Origin: Escherichia phage RB69
Sequence record: NC_004928.1
Direction: 5' to 3' (one strand)
Length of the DNA stretch: 64,000 nt
In this document: piece by piece, positions 344 to 50,784 of the stretch
Position numbering within the stretch: position 1 is the first letter of the stretch
Layout of the letters: each line of letters opens with the position of its first letter
Translations under genes and position numbers: made by a program
The notes under the pieces: model-generated
Told to the model about the DNA's origin: nothing
Databases searched by the model: none
The model's input: only the letters and a program-made list of their open reading frames with translations

Positions 344-1915
344 ATGAAATTTAATATCTTAAGTTTGTTTGCTCCATGGGCAAAAATGGACGAACGTGAT
401 TACAAAGACCAAGAAAAAGAAAATTTAGAATCGATCACCTCACCAAAATTAGACGACGGCGCTAAAGAATACGAAGTATCTGAAAATGAAGCACAGCAAA
501 CATATAATGCTATGTTTCAGAGAATGTTCGGTAGCCAAGAACCAGGGCTCAAATCAACGCGTGAATTAATCGATACGTATCGAAATTTGATGACGAACTA
601 TGAAGTGGATAATGCAGTCTCTGAAATAGTTTCCGATGCTATCGTATATGAAGATGATACAGAAGTCGTTTCTATAAATTTAGACAACACAAAATTTAGT
701 CCAAATATCAAATCAATGATGTTGGATGAATTTAACGAAGTGTTAAATCATTTATCTTTCCAACGTAAAGGTTCAGATCATTTTAGACGTTGGTATGTGG
801 ATTCTCGAATTTTCTTCCATAAAATTATTGACCCTAAACGCCCTAAAGAAGGTATTAAAGAGCTTCGTCGTTTAGACCCACGTCAAGTTCAATATGTCCG
901 TGAAGTTATTACAACCACTGAAGCCGGTGTTAAAATAGTCAAGGGTTATAAAGAATATTTCATTTATGACACATCACACGAATCTTATGCTTGTGATGGT
1001 CGCATATATGAAGCTGGCACAAAAATAAAAATCCCTAAAGCCGCGATTGTTTATGCCCATTCTGGTTTAGTTGATTGTTGTGGTAAAAATATCATTGGTT
1101 ATTTGCATCGGGCTATTAAGCCGGCGAACCAATTAAAACTTCTTGAAGATGCCGTCGTAATTTATCGTATTACTCGTGCTCCTGATCGTCGTGTATGGTA
1201 TGTTGATACAGGTAATATGCCTTCAAGAAAAGCAGCAGAACATATGCAACATGTTATGAATACGATGAAAAACCGTATTGCATATGATGCTACCACAGGC
1301 AAGATTAAAAACCAACAGCATATTATGTCGATGACCGAAGATTATTGGTTACAACGACGTGATGGTAAAGCAGTAACAGAAGTTGATACATTACCAGGTG
1401 CAGATAATACTGGAAATATGGAAGATGTACGTTGGTTCCGTAATGCGCTTTATATGGCTTTACGTATTCCTATTACCCGTATTCCAAGTGACCAAGGTGG
1501 TATACAGTTTGATGCTGGTACTTCTATTACACGAGATGAATTGTCATTTGGTAAATTTATTCGTGAGCTGCAACATAAATTTGAAGAGATATTCCTAGAC
1601 CCGCTTAAAACTAATTTAATTCTTAAAGGAATTATTACAGAAGATGAGTGGAACGATGAAATAAATAATATTAAGATAAAATTTCATCGGGATAGTTATT
1701 TCTCGGAATTAAAGGATGCTGAGATTCTGGAGCGTCGAATTAATATGCTTCAGATGGCCGAACCATTTATTGGTAAATATATTTCTCACAGAACAGCTAT
1801 GAAAGATATTCTTCAGATGTCTGACGAGGAAATTGAACAAGAGGCTAAGCAAATTGAAGAAGAGTCGAAAGAGGCTCGTTTCCAAGACCCCGACCAAGAA
1901 CAAGAGGATTTTTAA
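344..1915 (+). CDS. 20: portal vertex protein gp20
   Basis: Track ORF 332..1915; near-identical to recalled T4 gp20; ATG at 344 (MKFNIL) follows GGAG at 334-337, track start at 332 is TTG. Confidence 0.95.
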
Positions 1916-2151
1916 TGGACGATTTAATTCAAGCTATTAAATCAAACGACCTCGTTGCTACTCGAAAGTTTTTTGAAAGTGCAATGGCAGAAAAAACGGT
2001 TCGTTTGATTGAAGCACGCAAAGCAGAAATCGCTTCTCAATTTTTGATTGAAGGCGAAGAACCTGAAGAAGAAAAGAAAGCTAAAGCTTCGGAAGACGAC
2101 GCTGATGAAGGCGATGACGACGAAGACGAAGATGATGAGGACGATGAATAA
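1915..2151 (+). CDS. 67: prohead core protein gp67 (acidic C-terminus)
   Basis: 78 aa ORF, start overlaps gp20 stop (TAATG); position and acidic tail as in T4. Confidence 0.85.
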
Positions 2152-2576
2152 TGTATCTTATCCCTGAATCTTATGAATTGGTACTCGAAAATGTCGAAGC
2201 ACTTATTCCTGAAGCACAGGGCCGAATCGATGCATTGTCTTCTGCTCTCGATATTGACGATATAAATACTATTATCGAGAACATGCTTGAAACTGAAACG
2301 GATTTAGCTGTTGCAATGGCTTCCATTATTAATGAAGAACAGTTAAATGAGTTTATCGTTAAACATGTTTCTTCTCGTGGTGAAGTCACCCGCACTAAAG
2401 ACCGTAAAACTCGTGAACGTAACGCGTTCCAAACAACCGGTCTTTCTAAAGCAAAACGTAGACAAATCGCTCGTAAGGTCGTTAAAGCTAAAAAAGCTAA
2501 CCCTTCAGGCCAAGTTAAAGGCTTGCGTAAGCGTAAAAAGGCTCTTAAACGTCGTAAAGCATTAGGATTAAGCTAA
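2151..2576 (+). CDS. 68: prohead core protein gp68
   Basis: 141 aa ORF, ATG overlaps upstream stop; basic C-terminus; T4 position. Confidence 0.85.
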
Positions 2577-3217
2577 TGAATAAACCCGAGTTACTTATTG
2601 AAACTTGGGGTCAACCCGGTGAGATTATTGATGGCGTTCCAATGTTGGAATCTCATGATGGAAAAGATTCTGGCTTAAAACCAGGGCTTTATATAGAAGG
2701 TATTTTTCTTCAGGCAGAGGTTGTTAACCGAAATAAACGTTTATATCCTAAACGCGTTTTGGAAAAAGCAGTAAGTGACTATATTAAAGAACAAGTCGCA
2801 ACCAAACAAGCCCTTGGAGAATTAAACCATCCACCTCGCGCAAATGTTGACCCTATGCAAGCCGCTATCATTATTGAAGATATGTGGTGGAAAGGAAACG
2901 ATGTATATGGACGCGCTAGAATTATTGAAGGCGACCATGGTCCCGGCGATAAATTAGCTGCTAATATACGAGCTGGTTGGATTCCAGGTGTTTCCTCTCG
3001 TGGTCTTGGTTCTTTAACCGACACCAATAAAGGGTACCGTATCGTGAACGAAGGATTTAAATTAACCGTCGGCGTAGATGCCGTATGGGGACCTTCTGCT
3101 CCAGATGCTTGGGTTACTCCTAAACAAATATCAGAATCAGAAAATTCGGTGGAAATCACCAAAAACAGTGCTGACGAAGCATTTAAAGCTCTCGCAGAGA
3201 GTTTAAAAGCATTATAA
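2576..3217 (+). CDS. 21: prohead core protease gp21
   Basis: 213 aa ORF; T4 gp21 similarity and gene order. Confidence 0.92.
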   Translation: MNKPELLIETWGQPGEIIDGVPMLESHDGKDSGLKPGLYIEGIFLQAEVVNRNKRLYPKRVLEKAVSDYIKEQVATKQALGELNHPPRANVDPMQAAIIIEDMWWKGNDVYGRARIIEGDHGPGDKLAANIRAGWIPGVSSRGLGSLTDTNKGYRIVNEGFKLTVGVDAVWGPSAPDAWVTPKQISESENSVEITKNSADEAFKALAESLKAL

Positions 3218-3220
3218 ATA
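3213..3220 (+). promoter_or_regulatory. late promoter TATAAATA upstream of gene 22
   Basis: Exact TATAAATA. Confidence 0.6.
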
Positions 3221-3250
3221 ATAATGTAATCTAAACCACAGGACACTAAA

Positions 3251-4063
3251 ATGATCAAAAGAACAATTTTGAAAGAAGCTCAGAATATCGAGACTTCAGT
3301 TGCTCTTAATAGTGTTTTCGAATCAGTAGAACTGTCTCCGGACGTTAAAGCTAATTTCAGCACTGTATTCGAAGCCACCGTTAAGCAGGAAGCAGTCAAA
3401 CTGGCTGAATCTCATATCAAAGCCATCGCCGAAAAAGCCGAAGAAGAAGTTGAAAAGGCTAAAGAAGATGCTGAAGAGAAAGCTGATAAAAAATTGGCTG
3501 AACAAGCTTCTAAATTCCTGGACCATCTTGCAAAAGAATGGCTCGCAGAAAACCAAATCGCAGTTGATAAAGGCATTAAAGCTGATTTGTTCGAATCCAT
3601 GCTTGGTGGTCTGAAAGAACTGTTTGTTGAACATAACGTTGTTGTTCCAGAAGAATCTGTAGATGTTGTAGCAGAAATGGAAGAAGAGCTGGCCGAACAT
3701 AAAGAAGAAACCGCTCGTTTGTTCGAAGAAGTTACCAAACGTGATGCATATATCAATTACGTTCAGCGTGAAACCGCTATTAATGAAAGCGTGAAAGACC
3801 TGACTGAATCTCAGAAAGAAAAAGTTATTGGCCTGGTTGAAGGTATGGATTATTCTGACGCATTTGGTACTAAGTTAACTGCTATTGTAGAAATGGTTAA
3901 AGGTTCTACTAAAGAAGAAGCCGCTATTACCGAAAGTATAAATACAGTTGACAATGACGCTGCCGGTCTTAATTTTGTTGCCGAAGCAGTTGACACTACC
4001 ACAACTCAGGTAGAACAGAATTCTAATGTAAGTTTATATGCGAAAGTCGCATCTCGTTTCTAA
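3251..4063 (+). CDS. 22: prohead scaffolding core protein gp22
   Basis: 270 aa, acidic coiled-coil-like; TATAAATA late promoter at 3213-3220. Confidence 0.92.
   Translation: MIKRTILKEAQNIETSVALNSVFESVELSPDVKANFSTVFEATVKQEAVKLAESHIKAIAEKAEEEVEKAKEDAEEKADKKLAEQASKFLDHLAKEWLAENQIAVDKGIKADLFESMLGGLKELFVEHNVVVPEESVDVVAEMEEELAEHKEETARLFEEVTKRDAYINYVQRETAINESVKDLTESQKEKVIGLVEGMDYSDAFGTKLTAIVEMVKGSTKEEAAITESINTVDNDAAGLNFVAEAVDTTTTQVEQNSNVSLYAKVASRF
3937..3944 (+). promoter_or_regulatory. possible late promoter for gene 23, inside 3' end of gene 22
   Basis: Exact TATAAATA about 140 nt upstream of gene 23 start. Confidence 0.4.
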
Positions 4064-4080
4064 TTTAAAGGTTAACACAA

Positions 4081-5649
4081 ATGACTACTATCAAAACTAA
4101 AGCTCAGCTCGTAGACAAATGGAAAGAACTGCTGGAAGGTGAAGGCCTGCCGGAAATCGCTAATAGCAAGCAGGCTATTATCGCTAAAATCTTCGAAAAC
4201 CAGGAAAAAGATTTCGAAGTATCCCCTGAATATAAAGACGAGAAAATCGCTCAGGCATTTGGTTCTTTCTTGACCGAAGCTGAAATTGGTGGTGACCACG
4301 GTTATAATGCTCAGAACATCGCAGCAGGTCAAACCTCTGGTGCAGTAACCCAGATTGGGCCGGCAGTTATGGGTATGGTTCGTCGTGCTATTCCTAATCT
4401 GATCGCTTTTGATATTTGTGGTGTTCAGCCTATGAACAGCCCTACCGGTCAGGTATTTGCTCTCCGTGCAGTATATGGTAAAGACCCTATCGCTGCTGGC
4501 GCTAAAGAAGCTTTCCATCCGATGTATGCTCCGGATGCAATGTTCTCTGGTCAGGGCGCTGCTAAGAAATTCCCAGCGCTGGCTGCTAGCACACAAACTA
4601 AAGTAGGTGATATCTATACTCACTTCTTCCAGGAAACTGGTACTGTATATCTGCAAGCTTCTGCTCAAGTAACAATTAGTTCAAGTGCTGATGATGCAGC
4701 TAAATTAGATGCAGAAATTATCAAACAAATGGAAGCTGGCGCACTGGTAGAAATCGCTGAAGGTATGGCTACTTCTATCGCTGAACTTCAGGAAGGCTTC
4801 AATGGTTCTACCGACAACCCGTGGAACGAAATGGGCTTCCGTATCGACAAACAAGTTATTGAAGCTAAATCTCGTCAGCTGAAAGCAGCTTACTCCATCG
4901 AATTGGCACAAGACCTCCGTGCAGTACACGGTATGGATGCTGATGCTGAACTGAGCGGTATTCTTGCTACTGAAATTATGCTGGAAATCAACCGTGAAGT
5001 TGTTGACTGGATTAACTACTCCGCTCAGGTTGGTAAATCTGGTATGACTAATATCGTTGGTTCTAAAGCTGGTGTATTTGACTTCCAAGACCCGATTGAT
5101 ATTCGTGGTGCTCGTTGGGCCGGTGAAAGCTTTAAAGCTCTGTTGTTCCAGATTGATAAAGAAGCAGTTGAAATTGCTCGTCAAACCGGTCGTGGTGAAG
5201 GCAACTTTATTATCGCTTCCCGTAACGTAGTTAACGTACTGGCATCAGTCGATACTGGTATTTCTTACGCTGCACAGGGTCTGGCTTCTGGTTTTAATAC
5301 CGACACTACTAAGTCTGTATTTGCCGGTGTACTTGGTGGTAAATACCGCGTATACATCGACCAGTATGCTAAACAGGATTACTTCACTGTTGGTTATAAA
5401 GGCGCTAACGAAATGGATGCAGGTATTTACTACGCTCCTTACGTTGCACTTACCCCACTGCGTGGTTCCGATCCTAAGAACTTCCAGCCGGTAATGGGCT
5501 TTAAAACTCGTTATGGTATCGGTGTTAACCCGTTTGCTGAAAGTTCCCTGCAGGCTCCAGGTGCTCGCATCCAGTCCGGTATGCCGTCTATCCTGAACAG
5601 CCTTGGTAAGAACGCTTACTTCCGCCGTGTATATGTAAAAGGCATCTAA
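4081..5649 (+). CDS. 23: major capsid protein gp23
   Basis: 522 aa, near-identical to recalled T4 gp23 along whole length. Confidence 0.98.
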   Translation: MTTIKTKAQLVDKWKELLEGEGLPEIANSKQAIIAKIFENQEKDFEVSPEYKDEKIAQAFGSFLTEAEIGGDHGYNAQNIAAGQTSGAVTQIGPAVMGMVRRAIPNLIAFDICGVQPMNSPTGQVFALRAVYGKDPIAAGAKEAFHPMYAPDAMFSGQGAAKKFPALAASTQTKVGDIYTHFFQETGTVYLQASAQVTISSSADDAAKLDAEIIKQMEAGALVEIAEGMATSIAELQEGFNGSTDNPWNEMGFRIDKQVIEAKSRQLKAAYSIELAQDLRAVHGMDADAELSGILATEIMLEINREVVDWINYSAQVGKSGMTNIVGSKAGVFDFQDPIDIRGARWAGESFKALLFQIDKEAVEIARQTGRGEGNFIIASRNVVNVLASVDTGISYAAQGLASGFNTDTTKSVFAGVLGGKYRVYIDQYAKQDYFTVGYKGANEMDAGIYYAPYVALTPLRGSDPKNFQPVMGFKTRYGIGVNPFAESSLQAPGARIQSGMPSILNSLGKNAYFRRVYVKGI

Positions 5650-5673
5650 TCTTAATTGATTAAATCTTATTTT

Positions 5674-5699
5674 GGGAGACTTCGGTCTCCCATTTTTGG
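5674..5699 (+). terminator. rho-independent terminator after gene 23, C(UUCG)G hairpin plus T-run
   Basis: gggagac-ttcg-gtctccc followed by ttttt. Confidence 0.75.
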
Positions 5700-5730
5700 T
5701 TTTATTTCTGCGCAATTTCGATGTAAGTTT

Positions 5731-5971
5731 TCAAAATATTTTGCCAATTAGGCATACCTTCTGAACATATGCCGGAGAACCGTCTTTATTTTTGAATGAT
5801 GCAAGTTTATCAGTGGCCCAATAACCTTTAGTTCGAGCTTCAGAATCAACTTTCATCCATACTTTGTTGAAGGCATTACCATTAACTTTTGCACCATATT
5901 TTTGTACTTTCGGTTACAGATCCAGCTTCCAGAACTTTTACAGTATCTCGTAAGAAACGTGCTTTAGTCAT
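5731..5971 (-). pseudogene. small ORF interrupted by a 1-nt frameshift at an A5 run (about 79 codons if corrected)
   Basis: Hand translation of minus strand: MTKARFLRDTVKVLEAGSVTESTK then stop; adjacent frame continues ...YGAKVNGNAFNKVWMKVDSEARTKGYWATDKLASFKNKDGSPAYVQKVCLIGKIF*. Confidence 0.45.
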
Positions 5972-6037
5972 TTTGTTTACTCCTCTGCAGCTGATAAGTC
6001 GATAGTATCACATACCAAATACGTTGTAAACAATCTT

Positions 6038-6045
6038 TATAAATA
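6038..6045 (+). promoter_or_regulatory. late promoter TATAAATA upstream of gene 24
   Basis: Exact TATAAATA. Confidence 0.6.
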
Positions 6046-6072
6046 ATCTATATCACATAAGGGAAAAATGCA

Positions 6073-7356
6073 ATGAGTAAAATCCAAAAATTATCGCGTG
6101 AATCTACAACGTCTACCAGCAACTCAATTGGTCGCCCAAATCTCGTTGCTTTGACTCGCGCTACGACTAAATTAATATATTCTGACATCGTAGCAACACA
6201 AAGAACTAATCAACCTGTTGCTGCTTTTTATGGTATCAAATATCTTAACCCAGATAACGAATTCACATTTAAAACTGGTGCTACTTATGCTGGCGAAGCT
6301 GGATATGTAGACCGAGAAAAAATTACTGAGCTCACAGAAGAATCAAAAGCCACACTAAATAAAGGCGATTTTTTCAAATATAATAATATCGTCTATAAAG
6401 TGTTAGAAGATACACCATTTGCAGATATTCAAGAAAGTGATCTAGAATTAGCTCTTCAGATTGCAGTCGTTCATTTAAAGGTACGGTTGTTTTCAGATGC
6501 AGCGGTAACAAGCAAATTTGAAAGCTCTGGTAGCGAAATTTCTGATGCAAGATTCCAGATTAATAAATGGCAAACTTCAGTCAAATCTCGTAAACTTAAA
6601 ACCGGCCTCACGGTTGAATTAGCGCAAGATTTGGAAGCGAATGGATTTGATGCCCCTAACTTCTTAGAAGATTTGCTTGCAACTGAAATGGCTGATGAAA
6701 TTAATAAAGATATTCTTCAGTCTTTAATTACTGTATCGAAACGTTATAAAGTTACTGGAATTACTGACACCGGATTTATTGACTTGAGCTATGCATCCGC
6801 TCCAGAAGCAGGTCGTTCGTTATATCGAATGGTGTGTGAAATGGTATCACACATTCAAAAAGAGTCAACTTATACTGCGACGTTTTGTGTAGCTTCAGCT
6901 CGTGCAGCTGCTATTCTTGCTGCTTCCGGTTGGTTAAAACATAAACCAGAAGATGATAAGTATCTTTCACAAAATGCTTACGGGTTCTTAGCTAATGGTT
7001 TACCGCTTTATTGCGATACTAACAGTCCATTAGATTATGTGATCGTTGGCGTAGTAGAAAATATCGGTGAAAAAGAAATTGTTGGATCAATTTTCTATGC
7101 TCCGTATACAGAAGGTCTCGACTTAGATGACCCGGAACATGTTGGTGCATTTAAAGTTGTAGTTGATCCAGAAAGCTTGCAACCGTCTATTGGTTTATTG
7201 GTTAGATACGCTTTATCAGCAAATCCTTACACAGTAGCAAAAGACGAAAAAGAAGCGAGAATAATTGATGGCGGGGACATGGATAAAATGGCAGGACGTT
7301 CAGACTTGTCTGTTTTACTCGGTGTTAAATTGCCTAAAATTATTATAGATGAATAA
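6073..7356 (+). CDS. 24: capsid vertex protein gp24
   Basis: 427 aa, near-identical to recalled T4 gp24; TATAAATA at 6038-6045. Confidence 0.97.
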   Translation: MSKIQKLSRESTTSTSNSIGRPNLVALTRATTKLIYSDIVATQRTNQPVAAFYGIKYLNPDNEFTFKTGATYAGEAGYVDREKITELTEESKATLNKGDFFKYNNIVYKVLEDTPFADIQESDLELALQIAVVHLKVRLFSDAAVTSKFESSGSEISDARFQINKWQTSVKSRKLKTGLTVELAQDLEANGFDAPNFLEDLLATEMADEINKDILQSLITVSKRYKVTGITDTGFIDLSYASAPEAGRSLYRMVCEMVSHIQKESTYTATFCVASARAAAILAASGWLKHKPEDDKYLSQNAYGFLANGLPLYCDTNSPLDYVIVGVVENIGEKEIVGSIFYAPYTEGLDLDDPEHVGAFKVVVDPESLQPSIGLLVRYALSANPYTVAKDEKEARIIDGGDMDKMAGRSDLSVLLGVKLPKIIIDE

Positions 7357-7359
7357 ACA

Positions 7360-7388
7360 AAAAAAGGGACCTTACGGTCCCTTTTTTC
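7360..7388. terminator. bidirectional terminator between gene 24 and rnlB
   Basis: aaaaaa-gggacc-ttac-ggtccc-tttttt between convergent genes. Confidence 0.75.
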
Positions 7389-7389
7389 G

Positions 7390-8388
7390 TTATGATACTA
7401 ATTCAATCCATGCAGGACGCAGAACATCTTGCACCATTCGGACTAATTCTTTCTTAACAAGATTCGGATTATCAGATGTTGTTAATACAATACCTTCACG
7501 AGAAGTTTCTTCCAGAATATCTTGAACAGTCAATCCCATCACTTTGCCAAAATCTTTTGGCGTTACAGTCCCAATCTTAGAAATAACATTATTAACACGA
7601 TTTAATGTAACATAACAAGCTAGAACATCAAGCAAGTTTTTGTCAATTTCGGTTAATGGAACCTGAGTTTTAATAGGCTTATCAGACTTTTTCTTTTCAC
7701 TGAATTTAGAGTTCTTGCACTTAATCGCTACACGAGTACCGTTTGGCAGCCATTTAGGGAAACAAGGCTTCAGAACATAACCTTCTGCAGTATTATCACC
7801 AATAACATTAGCATCAAATACACAATTATTTGCTTCTACAAGGTCTTCTGACGCAGTAGCATTATAAGCGGCTAAAACGGAATCAAGGTCATTTGGAATC
7901 ATGATAAGAGAATCAAATGTTCCACGACCAAGCATTGGTGCCATTTTAAAACCGAATTCATTACAGAAATCTTGCATTTCGTAATCGGTCAAATACGTAT
8001 TATCACCACTTTCTGTATTGATAAGGATATCGAACACATAAAAATCTTTTTCACCGTAGTCAACACCTTTCTGGATTCCACCACCAGCGAATTCACCGAA
8101 TACTTGATATGATACGGCTCGAGCTGTGTACATGAATTTCTGAACGGTTTTAATAGCTTTATCATACTTCTTGAGTACGATTTCATAACCATAAAAATCT
8201 TCTGCTGGAAGAATAGGGCCTGTGCGCTTGGCGCATGTGACGTTGTCACGTTCAATTATTAACGAGAAGTTGGTCCCATGGATTTTCTCACGTGCTACCC
8301 AAACACCAGTAGTCAAACCATTAGTGTAGAGTTTTTCAATAAACTTAGAGTTGTAGTGGTTTTCAAGACTGCTGTATTTCTTAAACAT
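7390..8388 (-). CDS. rnlB: RNA ligase 2
   Basis: 332 aa; N-terminus [16 protein letters not shown] and KIHGTN ligase motif I as in T4 Rnl2. Confidence 0.93.
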
Positions 8389-8507
8389 AAATCACCATTA
8401 TAAATAATAATATCAAAATAATTAGCAGAGACTCTATCTCCGACCCGATGTTTAATTTGAATGGATAGAACCTAGATTCATTATACCATCAAAAAATGTA
8501 AAGCATA

Positions 8508-8759
8508 TTAGAACTTGATTTCTATCCAATGACCATCACGTTGGTCGTGATTAATTTTGTACTGAAAGCCGTTATCACGAAGCCATTGACCGACTTGTTC
8601 AGTTATAGTTAAATCGTTCTTTGACGGGTAGTACGTGAATTGTGTCTGACCTTTGTCAGCGGCTTTCTCTGCCATCGCAGAGAAGTTAGTAATAAAATCA
8701 CTCAACAAATTAGCTTTAGTGGCCAGAGCCCTTTCTCTTAATTCCTGTGCAAAACTCAT
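8508..8759 (-). CDS. hypothetical protein (24.2-like by position)
   Basis: 83 aa ORF, overlaps upstream stop, T4-like position. Confidence 0.6.
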   Translation of the reverse strand: MSFAQELRERALATKANLLSDFITNFSAMAEKAADKGQTQFTYYPSKNDLTITEQVGQWLRDNGFQYKINHDQRDGHWIEIKF

Positions 8760-8956
8760 TTCTTCACCTTTTTGTTAATCAAACGTTTACGGTATACAAC
8801 TTTTTCTTTTGCTTTAAACTTTGACCGAGCTGTCTCGGCTTTAGTCCATAGTAATCCAACTTCTTTAGGTTGTAAACCGATTTTTTGAGCAATTTCTACG
8901 AATGAAAATCCCGCCTCATGTAATGTATAAACTTCAACTTCAGCTCTCATAATCAA
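8756..8956 (-). CDS. hypothetical protein (24.3-like by position)
   Basis: 66 aa ORF between hoc and 24.2. Confidence 0.55.
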   Translation of the reverse strand: MIMRAEVEVYTLHEAGFSFVEIAQKIGLQPKEVGLLWTKAETARSKFKAKEKVVYRKRLINKKVKK

Positions 8957-9010
8957 TCCCGTATTATTTGGTTTGTGCCATTATATACATCAATCTCACG
9001 TTGTGTTTTG

Positions 9011-9046
9011 TATGCTTTAAAAACGAAGAAAGGGGCCGAAGCCCCT
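9011..9046 (-). terminator. terminator hairpin downstream of hoc
   Basis: ggggc-ttcg-gcccc on minus strand followed by T-rich tract. Confidence 0.6.
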
Positions 9047-9051
9047 TACGA

Positions 9052-10467
9052 TTATGGATATGTATAGATGATACCAGTTTCCAAAGCAGTTTTATGGATG
9101 ATGTATCCATTACGTGATTCTTGAACATCAACTTCTGGATAGTCTTTCATCATCTTCTGAAGAGTGTAACGATGCAGGTAGTATTTACTATCTGGATCTT
9201 CAGTTTTCCAATCTTTACCTTCTTCAGTCATTTTTTGGATTTCATCCATAACCCACCAACCGCACCAGATGTAAGCTGAAGTACGATGTGGAAGAGGATG
9301 AACATAAGGTAGTTCACCTTCTGGCTCAATTGGAGTCTGTTCAGTAATAACAACTTCAGCGGTTGAACTAATTGTCTTTGAAGTATAGTTATCTTTAGTT
9401 AATACTGCTTCAACTTTAATTGTATGAGTACCAGCTGAGGAGGTATCAATACTGTAAGTATTAGTAGAATTACTTTCTGCTACATTGTCTTTCTTCCAAG
9501 AATACACAATATTAGTATCACCTGGAGCACCAGTAACAGATGCTGTTAAAGTTGCAGTTCCGCCAACAGTAGTATTAACTGATGGCGGAGATAAAGAAAT
9601 GGTGGCACTATTAAATGTAGCATTATTAGTTACTACTGTTGCTTCTGCTGAAATTTCTTTTGTAACATAATTTGTTGCAGAAACAGATACGGTGCATTTA
9701 AGAGTTTTACTTCCGACCTCGGTTGGAGTGAATTTATACGTAGCAGAAGTTGCATCCAGAATATTACTGTCATCCATTGACCATTGGAATGATGTAGTAG
9801 CACCTGAAGGTGCACCAGAGACATTTGCAGTTAAAGTAATAGGAACACCAAAGACCGTAGTCGGAGACTCAGGCGTAATTTTTAGTGTTGAAGAATTAGC
9901 CTTTTTATTTACAGTCAAAGAAACCGCTGATGATTCTACTGTTTTATCAACGTAATCAGTTGCAGTCACTGTGACAGAACAAGTTATAGACTTAGTTCCT
10001 TCAGATGTTGGTGTATATTCAAAGGTTGATTGCTTTTGACCATCAACAGCGACCCCGTCAACTTTCCATGTATAAGCAATAGCAGCACCACTAGGTTGAT
10101 TGCTTACATTAGCAGTGAATGTTGTTGCTGTTCCAATTTCTACTGCCGCCGGAGAAGCCGGAGTAACAGCGACGGTAGAATTATTTTCTTTCTTATTAAC
10201 AGTGATAGTTGTTGACGCTTCAGCTATTTCCGGATCTCCTGCGGAAAGTGTATTGGTTGCAACCACTTTAATTTTTTTTGTTCCTGCCGGAGAAGCAAGA
10301 GTATAATCCATTGTAGCAGCCGTAGACTCCTGTGCTATATCATCTACAGTCCAGACGTATGTAATAGTACCATCTGGAGTTTCACCTGCAGGTGTAGCAG
10401 TGAATGTTTGTGAACCTCCAATAACCCCTGTAGGAGTTAAAGGAGATAACGTGACAGTGAATGCCAT
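9052..10467 (-). CDS. hoc: highly immunogenic outer capsid protein Hoc with expanded Ig-like repeat array
   Basis: 471 aa; four tandem Thr/Ser-rich Ig-like repeats plus W-rich C-terminal capsid-binding region; position between 24.3 and inh. Confidence 0.85.
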   Translation of the reverse strand: MAFTVTLSPLTPTGVIGGSQTFTATPAGETPDGTITYVWTVDDIAQESTAATMDYTLASPAGTKKIKVVATNTLSAGDPEIAEASTTITVNKKENNSTVAVTPASPAAVEIGTATTFTANVSNQPSGAAIAYTWKVDGVAVDGQKQSTFEYTPTSEGTKSITCSVTVTATDYVDKTVESSAVSLTVNKKANSSTLKITPESPTTVFGVPITLTANVSGAPSGATTSFQWSMDDSNILDATSATYKFTPTEVGSKTLKCTVSVSATNYVTKEISAEATVVTNNATFNSATISLSPPSVNTTVGGTATLTASVTGAPGDTNIVYSWKKDNVAESNSTNTYSIDTSSAGTHTIKVEAVLTKDNYTSKTISSTAEVVITEQTPIEPEGELPYVHPLPHRTSAYIWCGWWVMDEIQKMTEEGKDWKTEDPDSKYYLHRYTLQKMMKDYPEVDVQESRNGYIIHKTALETGIIYTYP

Positions 10468-10476
10468 AAGTTATCC

Positions 10477-11145
10477 TTATTTTAATGTTACGAAAGAAGA
10501 ATTACGAGTTTCACGAATTAGAACTGATCCATCGCGATTAATATAATAAATTAAGCTAAATAATGTTTGGTGAGCAGAAGCATGCACAAAACTCGTTGGG
10601 TGAGATTTCCAATCTGGGGTTTCGGCTATCCATTGATAAATCCACCAAGGAACAGTAACATATCCTGGGCCTTTGCCTAATTTAATGAGTGTAGGACTAA
10701 AATTTTCAGGCAGAACAAAATTTACTTCTTTATTTACTTCTGGCTCAGGCTCTTTTTCAGATTCAACAACCTGAGTAATTGCTTCTTCGAATTTATCATG
10801 GTCGAATTCTTTTTCTTGTTCGACAACTTCTAATACTTCAACTTGTTCTGTTGGAGAATCAAACAACAGAATAGCTTCTTCTTTAACTTCTTCGTTGGTG
10901 AAATTAACACCGTCCACATCATCTGCGGCAGTAATTAAATCAGTAATAGATAATCCATCAGTTTCAGGTAATGGTTCATCAGCCAGTGCGTTAAGAGCTT
11001 CTTCGATATCAATAACAATATTATCGAACGATTTTGTTTTCTTAACACTAATGCCAAATTGTTCTGCATATTCAAACAGTTTAGCTTTAGCTTCCTTTTT
11101 ATCAGAAAGAGCACGTAACTCTTCAATATAGTCTTTATCGATCAT
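10477..11145 (-). CDS. inh: prohead protease inhibitor Inh-like protein
   Basis: 222 aa acidic protein at T4 inh position. Confidence 0.7.
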   Translation of the reverse strand: MIDKDYIEELRALSDKKEAKAKLFEYAEQFGISVKKTKSFDNIVIDIEEALNALADEPLPETDGLSITDLITAADDVDGVNFTNEEVKEEAILLFDSPTEQVEVLEVVEQEKEFDHDKFEEAITQVVESEKEPEPEVNKEVNFVLPENFSPTLIKLGKGPGYVTVPWWIYQWIAETPDWKSHPTSFVHASAHQTLFSLIYYINRDGSVLIRETRNSSFVTLK

Positions 11146-11158
11146 GGTATTTCCTCAT

Positions 11159-11166
11159 TATAAATA
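11159..11166 (+). promoter_or_regulatory. late promoter-like TATAAATA upstream of uvsW
   Basis: Exact TATAAATA. Confidence 0.5.
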
Positions 11167-11195
11167 TAACTATATTTATTACATGGTAATTTGAC

Positions 11196-12710
11196 ATGAC
11201 TGACATTAAAGTACATTTTTATGATTTTAGTCACGTGCGCATTGAATGCGACGAAAGTACGTTTTACGAACTTCGTGACTTTTTTAGCTTTGAAGCTGAC
11301 GGGTATAAATTTAACCCAAAATATCGCTATGGGCAATGGGATGGTAGAATTCGACTTTTAGATTACAATCGTTTGTTACCATATGGACTTGTAGGACAAA
11401 TAAAAAAGTTCTGTAACAATATGAGTTATTCTGTATGGATTGACCCTAAAATCTTTGAGACCGAAGACCTTACCAGGGAAGATTTTGACGCGTGGCTTTC
11501 TAAACAAGAAATTTATTCAGGCAACGCCAAAATCGAACCACATTGGTATCAAAAAGATGCCGTATATGAAGGTCTGGTTAATCGTCGTCGAATTTTAAAC
11601 CTTCCGACATCAGCAGGTAAATCACTAATCCAAGCACTTTTAGCTCGATATTATCTAGAGAACTATGAAGGTAAAATTCTCATTATCGTCCCTACAACAG
11701 CATTGACAACCCAAATGGCTAATGATTTTGTTGATTATCGCTTGTTTAGTCATTCGATGATTAAGAAAATTGGCGGTGGTGCTGATAAAGCGGACAAATC
11801 TAAAAACGACGCTCCAATTATTGTTGGCACATGGCAAACGGTAGTTAAGCAGCCTAAAGAATGGTTCTCTCAGTTCGGTATGATGATGAACGATGAATGC
11901 CACTTAGCAACAGGCAAAAGTATTTCTTCAATCATCTCAGGATTAAATAATTGCATGTTTAAATTCGGTTTATCTGGCTCATTAAGAGACGGAAAAGCCA
12001 ATGTAATGCAGTACGTAGGTATGTTCGGCGAAATCTTCCGTCCTGTTAGCACGTCTAAATTAATGGAAGACGGACAGGTAACTGAGCTTAAGATTAATAG
12101 TATTTTCCTTCGTTATCCAGACGAATTCGCCACCAAATTAAAAGGTAAAACATACCAAGAAGAAGTTAAAATTATTACCGGACTAAAACGTCGTACAAAG
12201 TGGATTGCTCAACTTTCGGTAAAATTGGCTAAGAAAGACGAGAACGCCTTTGTAATGTTTAAACACGTTACACACGGTAAAGAAATATTTGAAGCTATTA
12301 AAGAGCTTGGATACGAAAAAGTTTATTACGTATCAGGTGAAGTTGATACTGAAACACGTAACGCTCTTAAAGTCATGGCAGAAAATGGTAAAGGCATTAT
12401 TATTGTCGCATCATATGGAGTATTCTCTACCGGTATTTCAGTCAAGAATCTTCATCATGTTATTTTTGCTCATGGTGTTAAATCAAAAATTATCGTACTT
12501 CAAACCGTAGGTCGTGTGCTTCGTAAGCACGGTTCTAAAGCTGTTGCTACAGTTTGGGATCTCATCGATGACGCAGGTGTAAAACCTAAATCATTAAATA
12601 CTAAAAAGAAGTATACTCATCTTAATTACTTGTTAAAACACGGTATTGATCGTATCCAACGTTACGCTGATGAGAAATTTAACTATGTAATGAAAACAAT
12701 TAATTTATAA
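11196..12710 (+). CDS. uvsW: UvsW helicase (SF2 ATPase)
   Basis: 504 aa; Walker A-like PTSAGKS, DECH box; TATAAATA at 11159-11166. Confidence 0.93.
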   Translation: MTDIKVHFYDFSHVRIECDESTFYELRDFFSFEADGYKFNPKYRYGQWDGRIRLLDYNRLLPYGLVGQIKKFCNNMSYSVWIDPKIFETEDLTREDFDAWLSKQEIYSGNAKIEPHWYQKDAVYEGLVNRRRILNLPTSAGKSLIQALLARYYLENYEGKILIIVPTTALTTQMANDFVDYRLFSHSMIKKIGGGADKADKSKNDAPIIVGTWQTVVKQPKEWFSQFGMMMNDECHLATGKSISSIISGLNNCMFKFGLSGSLRDGKANVMQYVGMFGEIFRPVSTSKLMEDGQVTELKINSIFLRYPDEFATKLKGKTYQEEVKIITGLKRRTKWIAQLSVKLAKKDENAFVMFKHVTHGKEIFEAIKELGYEKVYYVSGEVDTETRNALKVMAENGKGIIIVASYGVFSTGISVKNLHHVIFAHGVKSKIIVLQTVGRVLRKHGSKAVATVWDLIDDAGVKPKSLNTKKKYTHLNYLLKHGIDRIQRYADEKFNYVMKTINL

Positions 12711-41413: not shown

Positions 41414-41662
41414 TTATTTCCTCAGATTTTTCTTAATAACTTTCCAATCAGCTTTGAACATTTCAACGTCGGAGTGGTGAATCCAGAATCCTGCGCTTTC
41501 ACCGTCTTCGTAGAGTGGACATCCATCACATTCTTCGTTCCAACCCATTTCACGTAAAGCTTCTTCAGCTTGTTCAAGGAGTTCAGCGTCTTTACCGACG
41601 ATGTTGAAGTACCATTTACCTCTAACTTCTGAATCTTTGATGCTCTGGCGTTGCAATCTCAT
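41414..41662 (-). CDS. hypothetical protein (frd.1-like)
   Basis: 82 aa ORF. Confidence 0.55.
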   Translation of the reverse strand: MRLQRQSIKDSEVRGKWYFNIVGKDAELLEQAEEALREMGWNEECDGCPLYEDGESAGFWIHHSDVEMFKADWKVIKKNLRK

Positions 41663-41725
41663 TTTATTCTCCTCTTCACTTTTATTTGATAGGGCTACTA
41701 TAAAATAGCCCTATCTTGTTATAAA

Positions 41726-42118
41726 CTACTTTTTAAAAGTTTTTTGCAAAAGTTTGATGATTTCGTCGACGTTGGTTTCATCTACGATACAATGGATTTT
41801 TGTTACACCTAAAGTTATACCTTCGTTAGTAGGTTGAGGCTTTACTAAATCTACCTCAGTAAAGTATTTGAACTCATCATAATAAATCTCAAAATAAGTT
41901 TCAATTTCACCACCGGCAGAACATACAGTACCATCTTCCATAGTTACACTTACTACGTTTGACGTATCGCTATCATAATCAGGTTCCATTCCGTTTACAA
42001 CAAAACTAGGCCCGTGGAGTTCAATCAATTTTAACATCTTAGCGTTACTGTGTGGTGCTTCTTGAACAAAGTCGTCTTTAAATAAAGGGTTAATGATATA
42101 AGATTTTCCAATTTCCAT
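41726..42118 (-). CDS. hypothetical protein (frd.2-like)
   Basis: Track ORF to 42217; Met at 42118 preceded by GAGGAA RBS. Confidence 0.5.
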   Translation of the reverse strand: MEIGKSYIINPLFKDDFVQEAPHSNAKMLKLIELHGPSFVVNGMEPDYDSDTSNVVSVTMEDGTVCSAGGEIETYFEIYYDEFKYFTEVDLVKPQPTNEGITLGVTKIHCIVDETNVDEIIKLLQKTFKK

Positions 42119-42128
42119 TTTGATTTCC

Positions 42129-42380
42129 TCATTTGTTGATGTGTTGTAATAAAGATTCTGCAAACGTCTCATATGATTCCAGGTGTTCTTCTTTAATGCG
42201 AACTGCATGATTATCACCCGAAGAATAGAACATCTGTACGATAAGAGCTTCGTAATCAGACGAAATACATGCTACGTTTTCCGGCTTCAGGCATTCATTG
42301 TATGTCGCAACTGGGTCAGTGAAAGCTGCAACGTTTTTGCTACCGCAGTAATCCATACTTCTTTGAATAATAAAAATCAT
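42129..42380 (-). CDS. hypothetical protein (frd.3-like)
   Basis: 83 aa ORF. Confidence 0.5.
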   Translation of the reverse strand: MIFIIQRSMDYCGSKNVAAFTDPVATYNECLKPENVACISSDYEALIVQMFYSSGDNHAVRIKEEHLESYETFAESLLQHINK

Positions 42381-42471
42381 TTTATTTTCCTCTCATTTGT
42401 TGATAAGTCTATAGTATCATGTTTAAAGGAAAAGTAAACAACTTTTTTTGGCAATTTACAGATACTCAAAA

Positions 42472-42489
42472 GGGAGACCGAAGTCTCCC
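42472..42489 (-). terminator. C(UUCG)G hairpin downstream of gene 32
   Basis: gggagac-cgaa-gtctccc (UUCG loop on minus strand), T-run follows. Confidence 0.6.
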
Positions 42490-42496
42490 TAATTTA

Positions 42497-43396
42497 TTAT
42501 AGACCAGCTAACAGGTCATCGAGGTCGCCATCGTCAGAAGACGAGGAACTCATGAAGTCATCTTCAGTTTTTGCAGAACTAAAGGCTTCCATGTCTTTAT
42601 CAAAATCGTCGAGGTCAGAAGCAACTTTATCTGCAACAGAAGCTGCTGCGGCTGCTGCACCACCCAGAGCGGCAGTACCAAGAACTTGATTAAATTTAGT
42701 ATTCAATTCTTCAAACGATTTGAACTTATCTTTAGAAGTCATTTCAGAAAGGTCAACCATTTGTTCGAACAATTCTTTCTGGAAAGATTCATCATCAATG
42801 TTTGGAATCGCAGATTGATTCAGGAATTTAGATTCGTCATAGTTACTGAAACCAGAAACCTGTTTAACTTTCAGCACAAAGTTAGCACCTTCCCATGGAC
42901 AAGTTACATCAACAGGAGTTTCACCCATTTCAGTATCAACTGCAATCATTGCATTGATTTTGTCCCAAATCTTTTTACCAAAACGGTATTTGAATACCTT
43001 ACCTTCATTATCTGGAGCTTGTGGGTCTTTAACAACCAGAATATTAGCCCAATAAGAAGTTTTACGTTTCAGTTGAGAATATTCAGTTTTGTTGGTATTG
43101 TACAGGTCATTTTTACTAATGTACTGACATACAGGACAAGAGTCATAATCGCCGTGTGTAGATGAACAGGTTTCAATATACCATTTGCCATTTTTCTTGA
43201 ACCCGTGGTTAACAAGAATTGCAAACGGAAGTGCGTCATCTGTTTTTGCCGGCAGGAAACGAATTACCGCTTGACCATTACCGGATGCATCGAGTTTCAG
43301 CTTCCATTCACCTTTATCTTCTGAAGAGAAACCTTTGTTACCATTCAGTTTAGCCATCTGAGCTGCGAGGTCTGCGGTACTTTTACGTTTAAACAT
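42497..43396 (-). CDS. 32: single-stranded DNA-binding protein gp32
   Basis: 299 aa; zinc ligands [11 protein letters not shown]; acidic C-terminus; T4 gp32 similarity. Confidence 0.97.
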
Positions 43397-43512
43397 TATA
43401 TTTACCTTTATTTAGATTATTTAATTTATTTACAGTTGGTTGCTACGACACTTATACCTCGTAGCTGGTATGATTTATTTATAAAGTAATTTTAACACAG
43501 ATAAAATAAAGC

Positions 43513-44166
43513 TTAATACTTACATGATTTTATTGTTTCTATGAACAATTTCTTAGCAGCATTTACATCGATTTGAAGTATTTTTCGATATGCCTTTAAT
43601 TTGGTAGAATAATTTTGCCAGACTAAATTGTCAGTAAGTTCGTCATGCTTATCTATAATATTCAAGAATGAATCCAACAACAAGAAGGTTTCAAACGAAA
43701 TTATATTGCTTTGTAGCAATTTAAATATGTAGCTCGACTGAACTTTATTATTATAATCAAATATCTCTTGAAGCGCACTAACTTCCACTTTCTTACTGAA
43801 ATAGTAGATGTTACGTACATCTTCAGCAAACGTCTCCTTGGCTTGTTTGAGACGTCCAATATATTCCCTATAGAAAACTAATGCATCAGCGTCTGATATC
43901 TCACCAATCCATGCATCTTGGTTAGCAACTAAGTTACTGATGAATATCAAAGTGAGTTCCTTTAACTTATATTTCTCTGCTAGTTTCTCAAAGAAATATT
44001 TATCTCGGCGTTTTTGATATGCATTATCCGAAACACGCATGCACCAGTTATATTTGATTACGTCATACCGACCATTAAAATGTTGTTTGCACATCAAGTA
44101 TAGTTTGTATACCGATTTTCCATTAATATAACGTTCTCCGTCGGGAGGCATGCGTATTTTAATCAT
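43513..44166 (-). CDS. 59: helicase loader gp59
   Basis: 217 aa as in T4 gp59. Confidence 0.92.
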   Translation of the reverse strand: MIKIRMPPDGERYINGKSVYKLYLMCKQHFNGRYDVIKYNWCMRVSDNAYQKRRDKYFFEKLAEKYKLKELTLIFISNLVANQDAWIGEISDADALVFYREYIGRLKQAKETFAEDVRNIYYFSKKVEVSALQEIFDYNNKVQSSYIFKLLQSNIISFETFLLLDSFLNIIDKHDELTDNLVWQNYSTKLKAYRKILQIDVNAAKKLFIETIKSCKY

Positions 44167-44501
44167 AATAAGAAATCTAACGTATTAGTTTTTTCACCAC
44201 GAGCAACTGATGGGCGAAGCATGTTTTCGTCAATTGCTTCGCTTGTAATTTTTTCAACAATTCCTGTAGGAATAAATTTAGCAAATTGTGTTTCTGGAAT
44301 AGAATTTTCTTCCAAGAAAGCAGTTGTTGCTTCTAAATAAGACATACCAAATTGTTCAACCATGGATTCGATAATGAATCCGTTTTCTTGACGGTCAAGC
44401 AATTTAGCGATATCATCTTTATCATGTTTTACTGCTAATTCTTGTTCAGATAAACCGGTCTCATCAACCGGTTTAATATCACTTAGTGAAAACTGTGTCA
44501 T
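44163..44501 (-). CDS. 33: late transcription co-activator gp33
   Basis: 112 aa as in T4 gp33. Confidence 0.9.
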   Translation of the reverse strand: MTQFSLSDIKPVDETGLSEQELAVKHDKDDIAKLLDRQENGFIIESMVEQFGMSYLEATTAFLEENSIPETQFAKFIPTGIVEKITSEAIDENMLRPSVARGEKTNTLDFLL

Positions 44502-44748
44502 AAAGCTCGACTACCTCTTCGTTTTCAGCTTCAAATTGGTCACGAGCATCTTTATGATAAAGAGCTAACAAACGATTAAACATTTTTCCATCAACGCCAA
44601 GCTCTTCTTTAGCACGAGTACGAATGTCTTTAATCAGTTCATTATAACCAGAAATTTTAAGTTTGTTATCGGAAGCTTCCTTGACTAGTTTAGCCAGTTC
44701 TTCACCATGCACATCTTGATTAAATTCAACTGCTTCTTTCTTAGCCAT
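44479..44748 (-). CDS. dsbA: dsDNA-binding protein DsbA
   Basis: Track ORF to 44766; Met at 44748 (MAKKEAVEF) matches recalled T4 DsbA start and follows AGGT RBS. Confidence 0.85.
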   Translation of the reverse strand: MAKKEAVEFNQDVHGEELAKLVKEASDNKLKISGYNELIKDIRTRAKEELGVDGKMFNRLLALYHKDARDQFEAENEEVVELYDTVFTK

Positions 44749-44799
44749 GTTTACCTCAGAATTCATTAATTACACTTGTTAATTTAGAAAGACCGGATT

Positions 44800-45672
44800 T
44801 TACAAGTATGAATAAATCTTGCCTTTAGGTTGTGGTTGATATGAGTTATAATACTCTATAATGGTTGAAGCAATATTATCAGGGATATAATCAAAATCAA
44901 TGAGAACCAAATTTTCTTGGTACCGTTTATATTCTTCTGCACTTAATAATACTTCAGCTTGAGAACGATCATTGGCAAGTGCTTCAATGATCGTTGTTTT
45001 CATGCTTGGAGTTCGTTCGCCTTCGACTCGAGTAAACCAGAAATCACCACGAACTCGAACAGACGCAACACCATCTTTACGGTCGCCTTTAAGAATTTTA
45101 GTCATGCAATCAATTTCGGCAGAACCATTCTTAATTTTAACCCATTTTTTCTGCGGTGGCGACCACTGTTTAACGTTAGGGTATTTGTGTAATTGTGTAA
45201 AGTCACCATCTGATGCAACAATACACACCTTATGACCAGCTAATGACAAATATTTAGTTAATACGCCGATATGGTCATCCGCTTCGTATTTGTCAATATC
45301 CATTACAACGTATGGCATATATTTCTTAATCTCATCAACGACTTGATGAAGTGCAGTAAAATATCCTTCCCAATCCCACTTTGAAGCTTCACGATCAGTT
45401 TTACGATTTTTCTTGTAGTAGTAAGCAAAGTCGCGTCGCCAATACCCAGAAGTAGCGTTATCCATGCACAATACAAATTTTGTATAACCTTGCTTACGGA
45501 ACATCACTACGTTTTTACGAATTGAATTCAAGACTACATGACGAACCATCGGAACGGTAATTTTATCACCATCTTCAAAGTTGTTTAATGCAGCTGCCAA
45601 TGCAATGTTACTAAAGTCTGCAAGCGCAATACCTTCTTTGTAATCTTCATCCAACATCATTTCTAAATCCAT
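44800..45672 (-). CDS. rnh: RNase H (5'-3' exonuclease), 3' end disrupted by apparent 1-nt deletion
   Basis: 290 aa ORF; conserved C-terminus LVKSGLSKLTSVINEF* continues in the +2 frame to 44756. Confidence 0.88.
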   Translation of the reverse strand: MDLEMMLDEDYKEGIALADFSNIALAAALNNFEDGDKITVPMVRHVVLNSIRKNVVMFRKQGYTKFVLCMDNATSGYWRRDFAYYYKKNRKTDREASKWDWEGYFTALHQVVDEIKKYMPYVVMDIDKYEADDHIGVLTKYLSLAGHKVCIVASDGDFTQLHKYPNVKQWSPPQKKWVKIKNGSAEIDCMTKILKGDRKDGVASVRVRGDFWFTRVEGERTPSMKTTIIEALANDRSQAEVLLSAEEYKRYQENLVLIDFDYIPDNIASTIIEYYNSYQPQPKGKIYSYL

Positions 45673-45750
45673 ATGAACCTCTTGTTCAGTTAGTCAACTT
45701 AGACCATAGTAACATACTAGTTCGAAAGCGTAAATAGTCTTTTACTCATT

Positions 45751-45758
45751 TATAAATA
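45751..45758 (+). promoter_or_regulatory. late promoter TATAAATA upstream of gene 34
   Basis: Exact TATAAATA. Confidence 0.6.
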
Positions 45759-45792
45759 GTAAAATAGAACACATAATGATAAGAGGACTACC

Positions 45793-49626: not shown

Positions 49627-49634
49627 GAGGTTAT

Positions 49635-50759
49635 ATGGAAAAATTTATGGCAAGGTTTGGACAGGGATACGTCCAAACGCCGTTTTTATCGGAAAGCAAT
49701 TCAGTTAGATTTAAGCTAAGTATAGCGGGTTCATGCCCGCTTTCAACAACTAATCCGTATATTTTGTTCCAAAACGAGCCTTTAGGGTTGCAGTCTTTTG
49801 GTATTGGACTAAATGTTAGGGTGATAAATCCGGAAAATGGAACTATAGTTGATAGTAAATTATACAATTTTGCGCCTACAAATAATGCAACTTCAGCTGC
49901 ATTTATTTCGTTTGTTAATACATACGCAGATAATTTCATTTTCGCATTTATTTCTAATAACAAATTTAATTTGCCGCCAGAAATAATTGAATGGTTTAAA
50001 GCTGCTGGGAGTTCAGTTATACCGTCAATTGAAGTTGCTAGTCTTGTTGATATTTCATATTCAGCGTTTTATGTTTCAGGTAAAAATACTATTGCATTAG
50101 AACACATAAAATACAGTAATAAGAAAACAATTTCTGATTACGCAACTCCATTAGATATTGTATATGACTCTATTGCTGATATAGGTGCTACCGGCTATCC
50201 TAGACGTACATATGAAGCTCTAGAAACGTTTTTATCTCCTGTTGGAGGAACTAACAATGAAATAAAAAGGGTGCCTACATCATCCCTTGTTACTCCTATC
50301 GCAAACTATGGATTAAAGCCTACAGATTTTCTTTATTTGAAATTTCAATTAATGGCTGATGAAGAATTATTAGAGGAAGGAACCACAAGACTTTCAATTC
50401 GTTTCTTTAAGTCTCCATCTAGCTCTCCTATATCATCTAAAGATATAAACTTTGATGGAACTGCCGGGGAGTGGAAGCTATATGAAGAATACGTTGAAAT
50501 ACCAGCTGAAGCTGATGGCTTTACAGTATATTGTTACCGTACGGCCTCAGTCGGTCAAGGTGGACTAAGAAATGTTATTTTCACTGAAGTATCATGTAAC
50601 GGAAGTATAGCAAAACCCGCCGAGTTTGGTATAAACGGTATTCGTGTTAATTACATTGATGAATCATTAACCGGTAATGATATAATGGACTTGCCTACTC
50701 AGTTATCTAACGACACAGGTAAGGTATTTGGGCAGGAATTTAAAGAGTACACAGAATAA
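49635..50759 (+). CDS. 35: long tail fibre hinge protein gp35
   Basis: 374 aa, MEKFMARFGQGYVQTP as recalled for T4 gp35. Confidence 0.92.
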   Translation: MEKFMARFGQGYVQTPFLSESNSVRFKLSIAGSCPLSTTNPYILFQNEPLGLQSFGIGLNVRVINPENGTIVDSKLYNFAPTNNATSAAFISFVNTYADNFIFAFISNNKFNLPPEIIEWFKAAGSSVIPSIEVASLVDISYSAFYVSGKNTIALEHIKYSNKKTISDYATPLDIVYDSIADIGATGYPRRTYEALETFLSPVGGTNNEIKRVPTSSLVTPIANYGLKPTDFLYLKFQLMADEELLEEGTTRLSIRFFKSPSSSPISSKDINFDGTAGEWKLYEEYVEIPAEADGFTVYCYRTASVGQGGLRNVIFTEVSCNGSIAKPAEFGINGIRVNYIDESLTGNDIMDLPTQLSNDTGKVFGQEFKEYTE

Positions 50760-50760
50760 A

Positions 50761-50780
50761 GGAGACTTCGGTCTCCTTTT
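50761..50780 (+). terminator. C(UUCG)G hairpin plus T-run after gene 35
   Basis: ggagac-ttcg-gtctcc-tttt. Confidence 0.7.
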
Positions 50781-50784
50781 CGCG

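Follow-up and report, generated by a model that had tools for sequence, protein, structure and literature searches.

Between genes 23 and 24 of Escherichia phage RB69, the reference sequence displays a small minus-strand open reading frame that runs into a stop and then continues in the adjacent frame. Is this a gene in decay, a gene read in two frames, or an intact gene that is broken in the record only? RB69 is a type phage, the species exemplar of Mosigvirus, and the DNA polymerase obtained from it is in wide use; its record of 2003 still serves as a reference. An earlier note on this DNA had offered three answers, a pseudogene, a homopolymer sequencing error or a slippery site. We analysed a window of 64,000 nucleotides from that record (NC_004928.1; all positions are those of the window) and compared it with related phages and with re-sequenced RB69. 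The interrupted frame is present in the record as given, but its break had been mis-located and incompletely described, and we consider that, most likely, the interruption is a fault of the reference record itself.

In the ORF list of the window, gene 23 (4081-5649) and gene 24 (6073-7356) lie on the plus strand and rnlB (7390-8388) on the minus strand, leaving between the first two a gap of 423 bp (5650-6072), in keeping with the 420 bp or so previously indicated. The beginning of the frame had also been correctly seen: an ATG at 5971 opens, on the minus strand, a stretch of 29 amino acids, MTKARFLRDTVKVLEAGSVTESTKIWCKS, followed by a stop (5882-5971), and the adjacent frame is indeed open over 60 codons (5731-5913), reading ...KYGAKVNGNAFNKVWMKVDSEARTKGYWATDKLASFKNKDGSPAYVQKVCLIGKIF up to its own stop. 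The record has annotated both pieces. The first is an exact match to RB69ORF189c (NP_861879.1) and the second, counted from an internal Met, to the 41 amino acids of RB69ORF188c (NP_861878.1; 5731-5856, minus strand). When aligned with the intact 270-nt ORFs of phages PhAPEC2 and APCEc01 and of re-sequenced RB69, they are found to be parts of a conserved small gene, of 89 codons and a stop in relatives, that spans 5702-5971 on the minus strand. Residues 1-16 of RB69ORF189c are homologous to the intact gene, the remainder being out of frame or scrambled, while the last 10 codons of RB69ORF188c (KVCLIGKIF and the stop) are out of frame after a -1 indel; the conserved C-terminus, 19 codons reading EGMPNWQNILKTYIEIAQK and a stop, is encoded at 5702-5761, in frame with that first ATG (5971). 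The product of 79 amino acids proposed in the earlier note must be replaced by one of 89, as given by the intact relatives, the tail ...KVCLIGKIF being out of frame. By exact look-up, each of the two annotated fragments is a singleton, present in one contig, and the intact 89-aa protein is present in 262. Taken together, RB69ORF189c and RB69ORF188c correspond to a single intact gene of 89 amino acids.

The way in which the frame is lost and recovered can be followed in the alignment with intact relatives, where the record departs by two compensating indels, +1 and -1. The first belongs to a record-private patch of 21 nt on the minus strand (5903-5923), written GGATCTGTAACCGAAAGTACA in the record and GAAGCAGTTAAGTTAGTAGA in re-sequenced RB69 and in all relatives, which amounts to 7-8 substitutions and a net gain of one nucleotide. 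The second, at 5761 (5760-5762, minus strand), is the absence of one A, the record having C-AGAAGG where relatives and re-sequenced RB69 have CAAGAAGG; located about 150 nt downstream of the patch, it puts reading back into the frame of the ATG, hence the conserved C-terminus, and it was missing from the first description of the break. That description had placed the accident at a homopolymer, A5 on the coding strand, seen as a T-run at 5897-5903. The plus-strand T5 is in fact at 5899-5903, and all intact relatives, as well as RB69 sequenced anew, have an A5 here too; the extra base sits just upstream of the run, within the divergent patch. We found no second copy of the patch in the window at up to three mismatches, and no hairpin in it. 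In JGI metagenome contigs the record's version had 0 matches and the consensus version three, a weakly informative result, the three matches being other Mosigviruses and not RB69; in scans of IMG/VR neither the record's patch nor the consensus control was matched, so that these negatives carry no weight.

That a gene exists at this place is not in doubt. The earlier note had suggested a protein database search with the frame-corrected product and had considered that a lack of homologues would speak against its reading; homologues are abundant. The frame-corrected product matches phrog_6003 with E = 6.5e-39 over profile positions 1-90 of 90, and the protein of an intact relative does so with E = 2.1e-45; the split ORF goes far beyond chance. 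The phage collection used to look for relatives was without the RB69 record; the best relatives in it are 96-98 % identical to the window, and the nearest database phage is at 97.9 % identity. PhAPEC2 and APCEc01 each have, in the gap between genes 23 and 24, one intact minus-strand gene of 270 nt encoding MTKARFLRDTLKVLEAEAVKLVEKYGAKVNGNAFNKVWMKVDSEARAKGYWATDKLASFKNKDGSPAYVQEGMPNWQNILKTYIEIAQK (PhAPEC2_170, AHV82879.1; APCEc01_119, AKO61172.1), with the same locus, strand, promoter and terminator as in RB69. The coding segments of the window are 94-96 % identical to these genes in DNA and the protein of re-sequenced RB69 is identical to theirs, whereas the RB69 record, with its +1 and -1 indels and its scrambled patch, was annotated with two ORFs.

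A tblastn search recovers the 89-aa protein in 118 phage records with an identity of at least 95 %, and at 30-38 % identity in about 119 more, mainly of Dhakavirus and Gaprivervirus. Over 100 Mosigvirus genomes have the gene in their 23-24 gap; the homologues of VR7, JS98 and phage 04086 occupy this gap as well, again on the strand opposite to that of its neighbours. The homologous ORFs encode 87-93 amino acids, and their position and orientation have been kept across Mosigvirus, Dhakavirus and Gaprivervirus, with 17 residues invariant in the alignment of the three genera. JS98 orf173 and VR7ORF190c (88-93 aa) share with the RB69-type protein the slot, the strand opposite to that of genes 23 and 24, an NGNA motif and the 17 invariant residues, although they are merely 30-38 % identical to it. 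The dN/dS ratio between JS98 and phage 04086 is 0.14, and among natural Mosigvirus alleles there are 3-4 synonymous differences and 0 nonsynonymous ones. AlphaFold gives the 89-aa protein a confident model (pLDDT 88), a three-helix bundle (3-25, 31-48 and 76-88) with a beta-hairpin (56-70). In view of the conservation of the homologues, the phrog_6003 match, the invariant residues, the low dN/dS and this model, the small gene is a real protein-coding gene, already annotated as conserved hypothetical in relatives.

It was then possible to compare the record with RB69 sequenced anew. RB69 assemblies were sought among the Logan (Illumina) assemblies by means of the exact RB69 versions of marker proteins. 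Exact gp23 is encoded in SRR16629523, SRR29299748 and SRR29299745; exact RnlB in SRR16629525, SRR29299747 and SRR29299748; and exact gp37 (1103 aa), the hypervariable tail-fibre protein, in SRR16634590, SRR16629520, SRR16629524 and SRR16629527. Three intervals of the window, 1081-5760, 6190-12388 and 41484-61442, some 31 kb in all, were compared with representatives of the series, which have 0 substitutions there; single runs (L018 and L019) add a private mismatch or two near the ends of contigs. As about 2 % of sites would be different in the closest database phage, we may, on this evidence, take these SRA samples to be RB69. The comparison was made on assemblies, and the samples are identified by this sequence match; some of the runs may be evolved or crossed RB69 derivatives, and one SRA series may derive from RB69 x T2 crosses (PRJNA1120483), its locus being of the RB69 type.

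All the substitution differences between the record and Illumina RB69, 15-16 in number (8 isolated and 7-8 in the patch), fall within a zone of 430 bp, 5761-6189, the sites of difference in this zone being 5761, 5832, 5904-5922, 5941, 5988, 5991, 6001, 6063, 6095 and 6189. Outside this zone the differences are five single-base indels, at 3257 and 3266, which form a pair, and at 42490, 44804 and 56604. A single uninterrupted ORF of about 87-93 codons, absent from the window, is present in the Illumina assemblies, where the small gene is intact and its 89-aa protein identical to the common Mosigvirus form; the lesions expected of a pseudogene are not reproduced in at least three runs belonging to two SRA series with exact RB69 marker proteins. 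Moreover, at the sites that vary among relatives (G at 6023 and the codons AAT, GTT and GCG) re-sequenced RB69 always agrees with the record, and at those where the record stands alone it agrees with the consensus of all relatives. Such a haplotype pattern is what one expects of a true RB69 plus errors, and not of recombination with another phage.

The lesions are in the record, they are private to it, and the gene is intact in independent assemblies; from this we infer that the cause is a sequence error, and not a lesion of the stock that was sequenced. It is very probable, in our opinion, that the frameshifts come from a low-quality stretch in the Sanger-era GenBank record of 2003. The gene of present-day laboratory RB69 would then be intact, encoding 89 amino acids on the strand opposite to that of the late genes 23 and 24, while some 430 bp of the record (5761-6189) would hold many base-calling or assembly errors, including the +1 in the scrambled patch and the -1 about 150 nt further on, which would have cut the ORF into RB69ORF189c and RB69ORF188c. 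Among the early proposals, sequencing error is therefore the best supported, but it is not an error of homopolymer length, as the A5 is unchanged. The record-private changes inside the small ORF are all nonsynonymous or frameshifting (L11V, A47T and the patch), and they look unselected, unlike the natural alleles; a search of 134 related records and of metagenomes found none of the record-private variants. According to the laboratory that did the sequencing, its shotgun plasmid libraries were poor in regions with novel ORFs, and PCR was used to close these (PMC1524935), which is consistent with thin coverage at this locus. What fits less well with a record error is the 21-nt patch, which, with its 7-8 substitutions, has an odd shape for base-calling. 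In the literature we found no mention of ORF188c or ORF189c and no reported correction of the RB69 reference, and the SRR accessions were uncited where they could be searched. T4 provides a precedent: comparison with T4-like genomes, and then re-sequencing, moved the gene boundaries of uvsW and uvsW.1 (PMC1524935). There, one ORF became two; at the RB69 locus, two annotated ORFs should become one.

The same facts have to be weighed against other explanations. If the interruption were that of a genuine pseudogene, the stock sequenced in 2003 must itself have carried the indels and substitutions, brought about for example by local error-prone repair or by a recombination patch, and present-day stocks would come from an unmutated sub-line. 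It is true that the gene seems dispensable, T4 being without it, that three natural Mosigvirus assemblies have a frameshift in it, and that the scrambled patch is hard to account for by simple miscalling. However, this history asks that 430 bp should have taken about 16-18 changes while the other 31 kb or so that were compared took 0 substitutions; the changes also reach gp24 (L8S), an essential capsid protein, as well as the promoter and the leader; the private variants are seen neither in the related records nor in metagenomes; and similar indel discrepancies affect gene 22 and rnh of the same record. We consider this history improbable. Still harder to accept is the view that there is no gene at all, and that chance ORFs occupy a spacer whose only contents are promoters and a terminator. 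The two fragments have no more than 29 and 41 aa, no Pfam family is matched above threshold, no informative fold match was obtained and we found no literature on them; against this, an ORF of 87-93 aa has been kept in three genera down to 30-38 % identity with its invariant residues, dN/dS is low, the predicted structure is confident, and the gene has a promoter and a Shine-Dalgarno sequence of its own, both predicted. The pattern of conservation already refutes the chance reading, and we give it almost no credence.

Recoding or phase variation at the A5 run must also be considered. In the first version the ribosome would shift by +1 on A-AAA-A before a rare AUA codon; in the second, slippage of the polymerase would toggle the gene on and off in the style of a contingency locus. 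A +1 slip on AAA-A would join ...STK to YGAKV..., the gene is split by a run of four A in mogra, ERZ13616402 and ERZ24991164, and homopolymer contingency loci have lately been described in T2 and T4 (10.1101/2025.10.21.683753). Yet the run of RB69 has the length that it has in intact genes, which leaves run-length variation without a role in the frameshift, and its 5 nt are below the minimum of the study just cited, where a contingency locus is a homopolymer of at least 6 nt. A second, opposite shift would moreover be needed at the non-slippery CAG-AAG if the conserved C-terminus were to be made, the homologues of the three genera all encode their protein in a single frame and none conserves a two-frame arrangement, and re-sequenced RB69 requires no shift. 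The slippery site that had been suggested is not borne out: programmed frameshifting at the RB69 locus appears very unlikely on these comparisons, and recoding or phase variation, already largely refuted for RB69 as far as sequences can tell, is at most a very slight possibility.

The A-run is of interest in other lineages. A5 has become A4 in three Mosigvirus assemblies, mogra (MN850579; L012/L026), ERZ13616402 NODE_89 (L025) and ERZ24991164 NODE_14445 (L032), and this splits the same gene into ORFs of 38 and 51 amino acids in mogra and in the two metagenome contigs. As the three sequences differ from one another by private substitutions, this frameshift has the look of a real, natural one. 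It may point to a lineage in which the gene is a natural pseudogene, or else to a hotspot where slippage recurs; in both cases the A5 run would be a natural site of frameshift in some lineage or lineages, and the presence of the A4 frameshift in natural assemblies makes the gene probably dispensable. The parallel with the contingency loci of T2 and T4 (10.1101/2025.10.21.683753) lies in a homopolymer frameshift in a non-essential gene; the difference, in RB69, is that the run is unchanged and has 5 nt and not 6 or more. It is conceivable, but unlikely, that the A5 acts in RB69-like phages as a recurrent hotspot of slippage which turns a dispensable early accessory gene off and may even turn it on again. 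It would then resemble the T2 and T4 loci, only with a shorter tract, and the damage of the RB69 record would have nothing to do with it. A weaker variant of this unlikely reading would have the gene toxic to Escherichia coli, so that mutated clones or poor coverage resulted in a bad stretch of reference.

The surroundings of the gene suggest how it might be expressed. A predicted sigma-70-type promoter, T4 early-like (TTTACA and TACTAT 17 nt apart, the latter with a TG extension), occupies 6002-6030 of the minus strand and the Shine-Dalgarno sequence GAGGAG is at about 5980-5985, so that the small gene would be expressed early from a promoter of its own. This predicted promoter stands back to back with TATAAATA on the plus strand (6038-6045), which, following established T4 knowledge, we take to be a T4-type late promoter motif, here for gene 24. 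At the other end, the gene stops right against the intrinsic terminator that follows gene 23 on the plus strand (5673-5702, annotated in PhAPEC2), TGGGAGACttcgGTCTCCCA and then a T-run; its hairpin (5673-5692), when read on the minus strand, is without a U-tract, and Rfam gave sub-threshold matches only, on this hairpin. The 36-nt region of the leader and Shine-Dalgarno sequence (5965-6000) is repeated elsewhere in Mosigvirus genomes, for instance at 71485-71520 of KAW3E185. This second copy, which is outside the window, lies just downstream of an ORF of about 100 aa on the same strand, and at its end it runs into the first codons of another ORF, of 54 aa. The repeat may be the reason why the Logan contigs of RB69 are broken near 5982-5994.

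The divergent block, that is, the late TATAAATA for gene 24 and an early GTTTACA, N17, TA(C/T)TAT for the minus-strand gene, is common to RB69 (6002-6045), T4 (before segD; L020, 6234-6323), VR7 (L013, 1096-1200) and JS98 (L014, 1100-1200). The earlier note was right in recalling that T4 carries segD at this place: this gene, for a homing endonuclease of the GIY-YIG type, is encoded by the minus strand of the T4 23-24 gap, with the slot, the orientation and the divergent promoters of the RB69 gene. Its product, of 223 aa against 89, has no sequence similarity with that of RB69. That the small gene might itself specify a homing endonuclease was considered and rejected, as there is no BLASTP alignment to SegD at E <= 100 and no Pfam GIY-YIG match. 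We can therefore picture the 23-24 gap, tentatively, as an exchangeable 'cargo slot' expressed early, which would hold a homing endonuclease in T4 and the 89-aa protein in three other genera.

As for what this protein does, our best guess is a dispensable early accessory protein with a role in host take-over or counter-defence; a conserved gene in a slot where genes are swapped in is a reasonable, if unremarkable, candidate for a host-interaction protein. Searches of Pfam gave a sub-threshold match to DUF4859 only, those of PADLOC and NCBIfam nothing meaningful, and Foldseek, run against the PDB and BFVD, matched only the family itself, while, among 1.8 billion representatives searched with the profile, just a few more small phage proteins came to light. 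The family profile also matched, over several stretches, three long repetitive or low-complexity proteins (P0034, P0036 and P0038; about 1000-1350 aa), one of them rich in Big_2 and LRR_5 repeats; we judged these matches compositional or spurious.

The practical meaning of this finding is mostly housekeeping. The locus is to be annotated as one gene of 89 amino acids and not as two orphan mini-ORFs; counts of 'RB69-specific ORFs', of core genes or of pseudogenes, as well as variant calls made on this reference, meet false signals here. The same comparison flags probable errors at the N-terminus of gene 22, at S8 of gene 24, which should be L8, and at the C-terminus of rnh. At the start of gene 22 (3251-3270) the record has an extra A at 3257 and lacks a C at 3266, 9 nt apart. 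It gives MIKRTILKEAQ as the N-terminus of gp22, where Illumina RB69 and a natural relative (L003) have MIKEQLLKEAQ and T4 has MLKEQLIAEAQ; the KEQL core is common to T4 and re-sequenced RB69, and the paired indels are probably an error of the record. Codon 8 of gene 24 (6094-6096) is TCG, for Ser8, in the record, while gp24 has Leu8 in re-sequenced RB69, PhAPEC2, APCEc01, L003 and T4. An exact look-up of the gp24 of the window found no other contig, a negative that fits a private S8 residue (one further protein gave the same result), and the S8 is probably another error, within the same 430-bp bad stretch. An independent RB69 gp24 was sought in the PDB, but 1YUE and related entries are T4 gp24, which confirms L8 in T4 only. 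In rnh (44800-45672, indel at 44804), the record has an RNase H of 290 aa ending in ...KIYSYL and Illumina RB69, with one extra A, a product of 305 aa ending in ...KIYSYFVKSGLSKLTSVINEF; the record probably truncates the C-terminus, to judge from the two versions. The remaining indels appear intergenic, 42490 lying just past the stop of gene 32 and 56604 between asiA and a 53-aa ORF. Finally, of the eight isolated substitutions that are private to the record, five bring a 6-bp palindrome into being or abolish one (5832, 5941, 5985-5993 and 6001), as was noticed post hoc: the record gains overlapping PvuII and PstI sites (CAGCTGCAG) and loses XhoI (CTCGAG), DraI (TTTAAA) and CTATAG.
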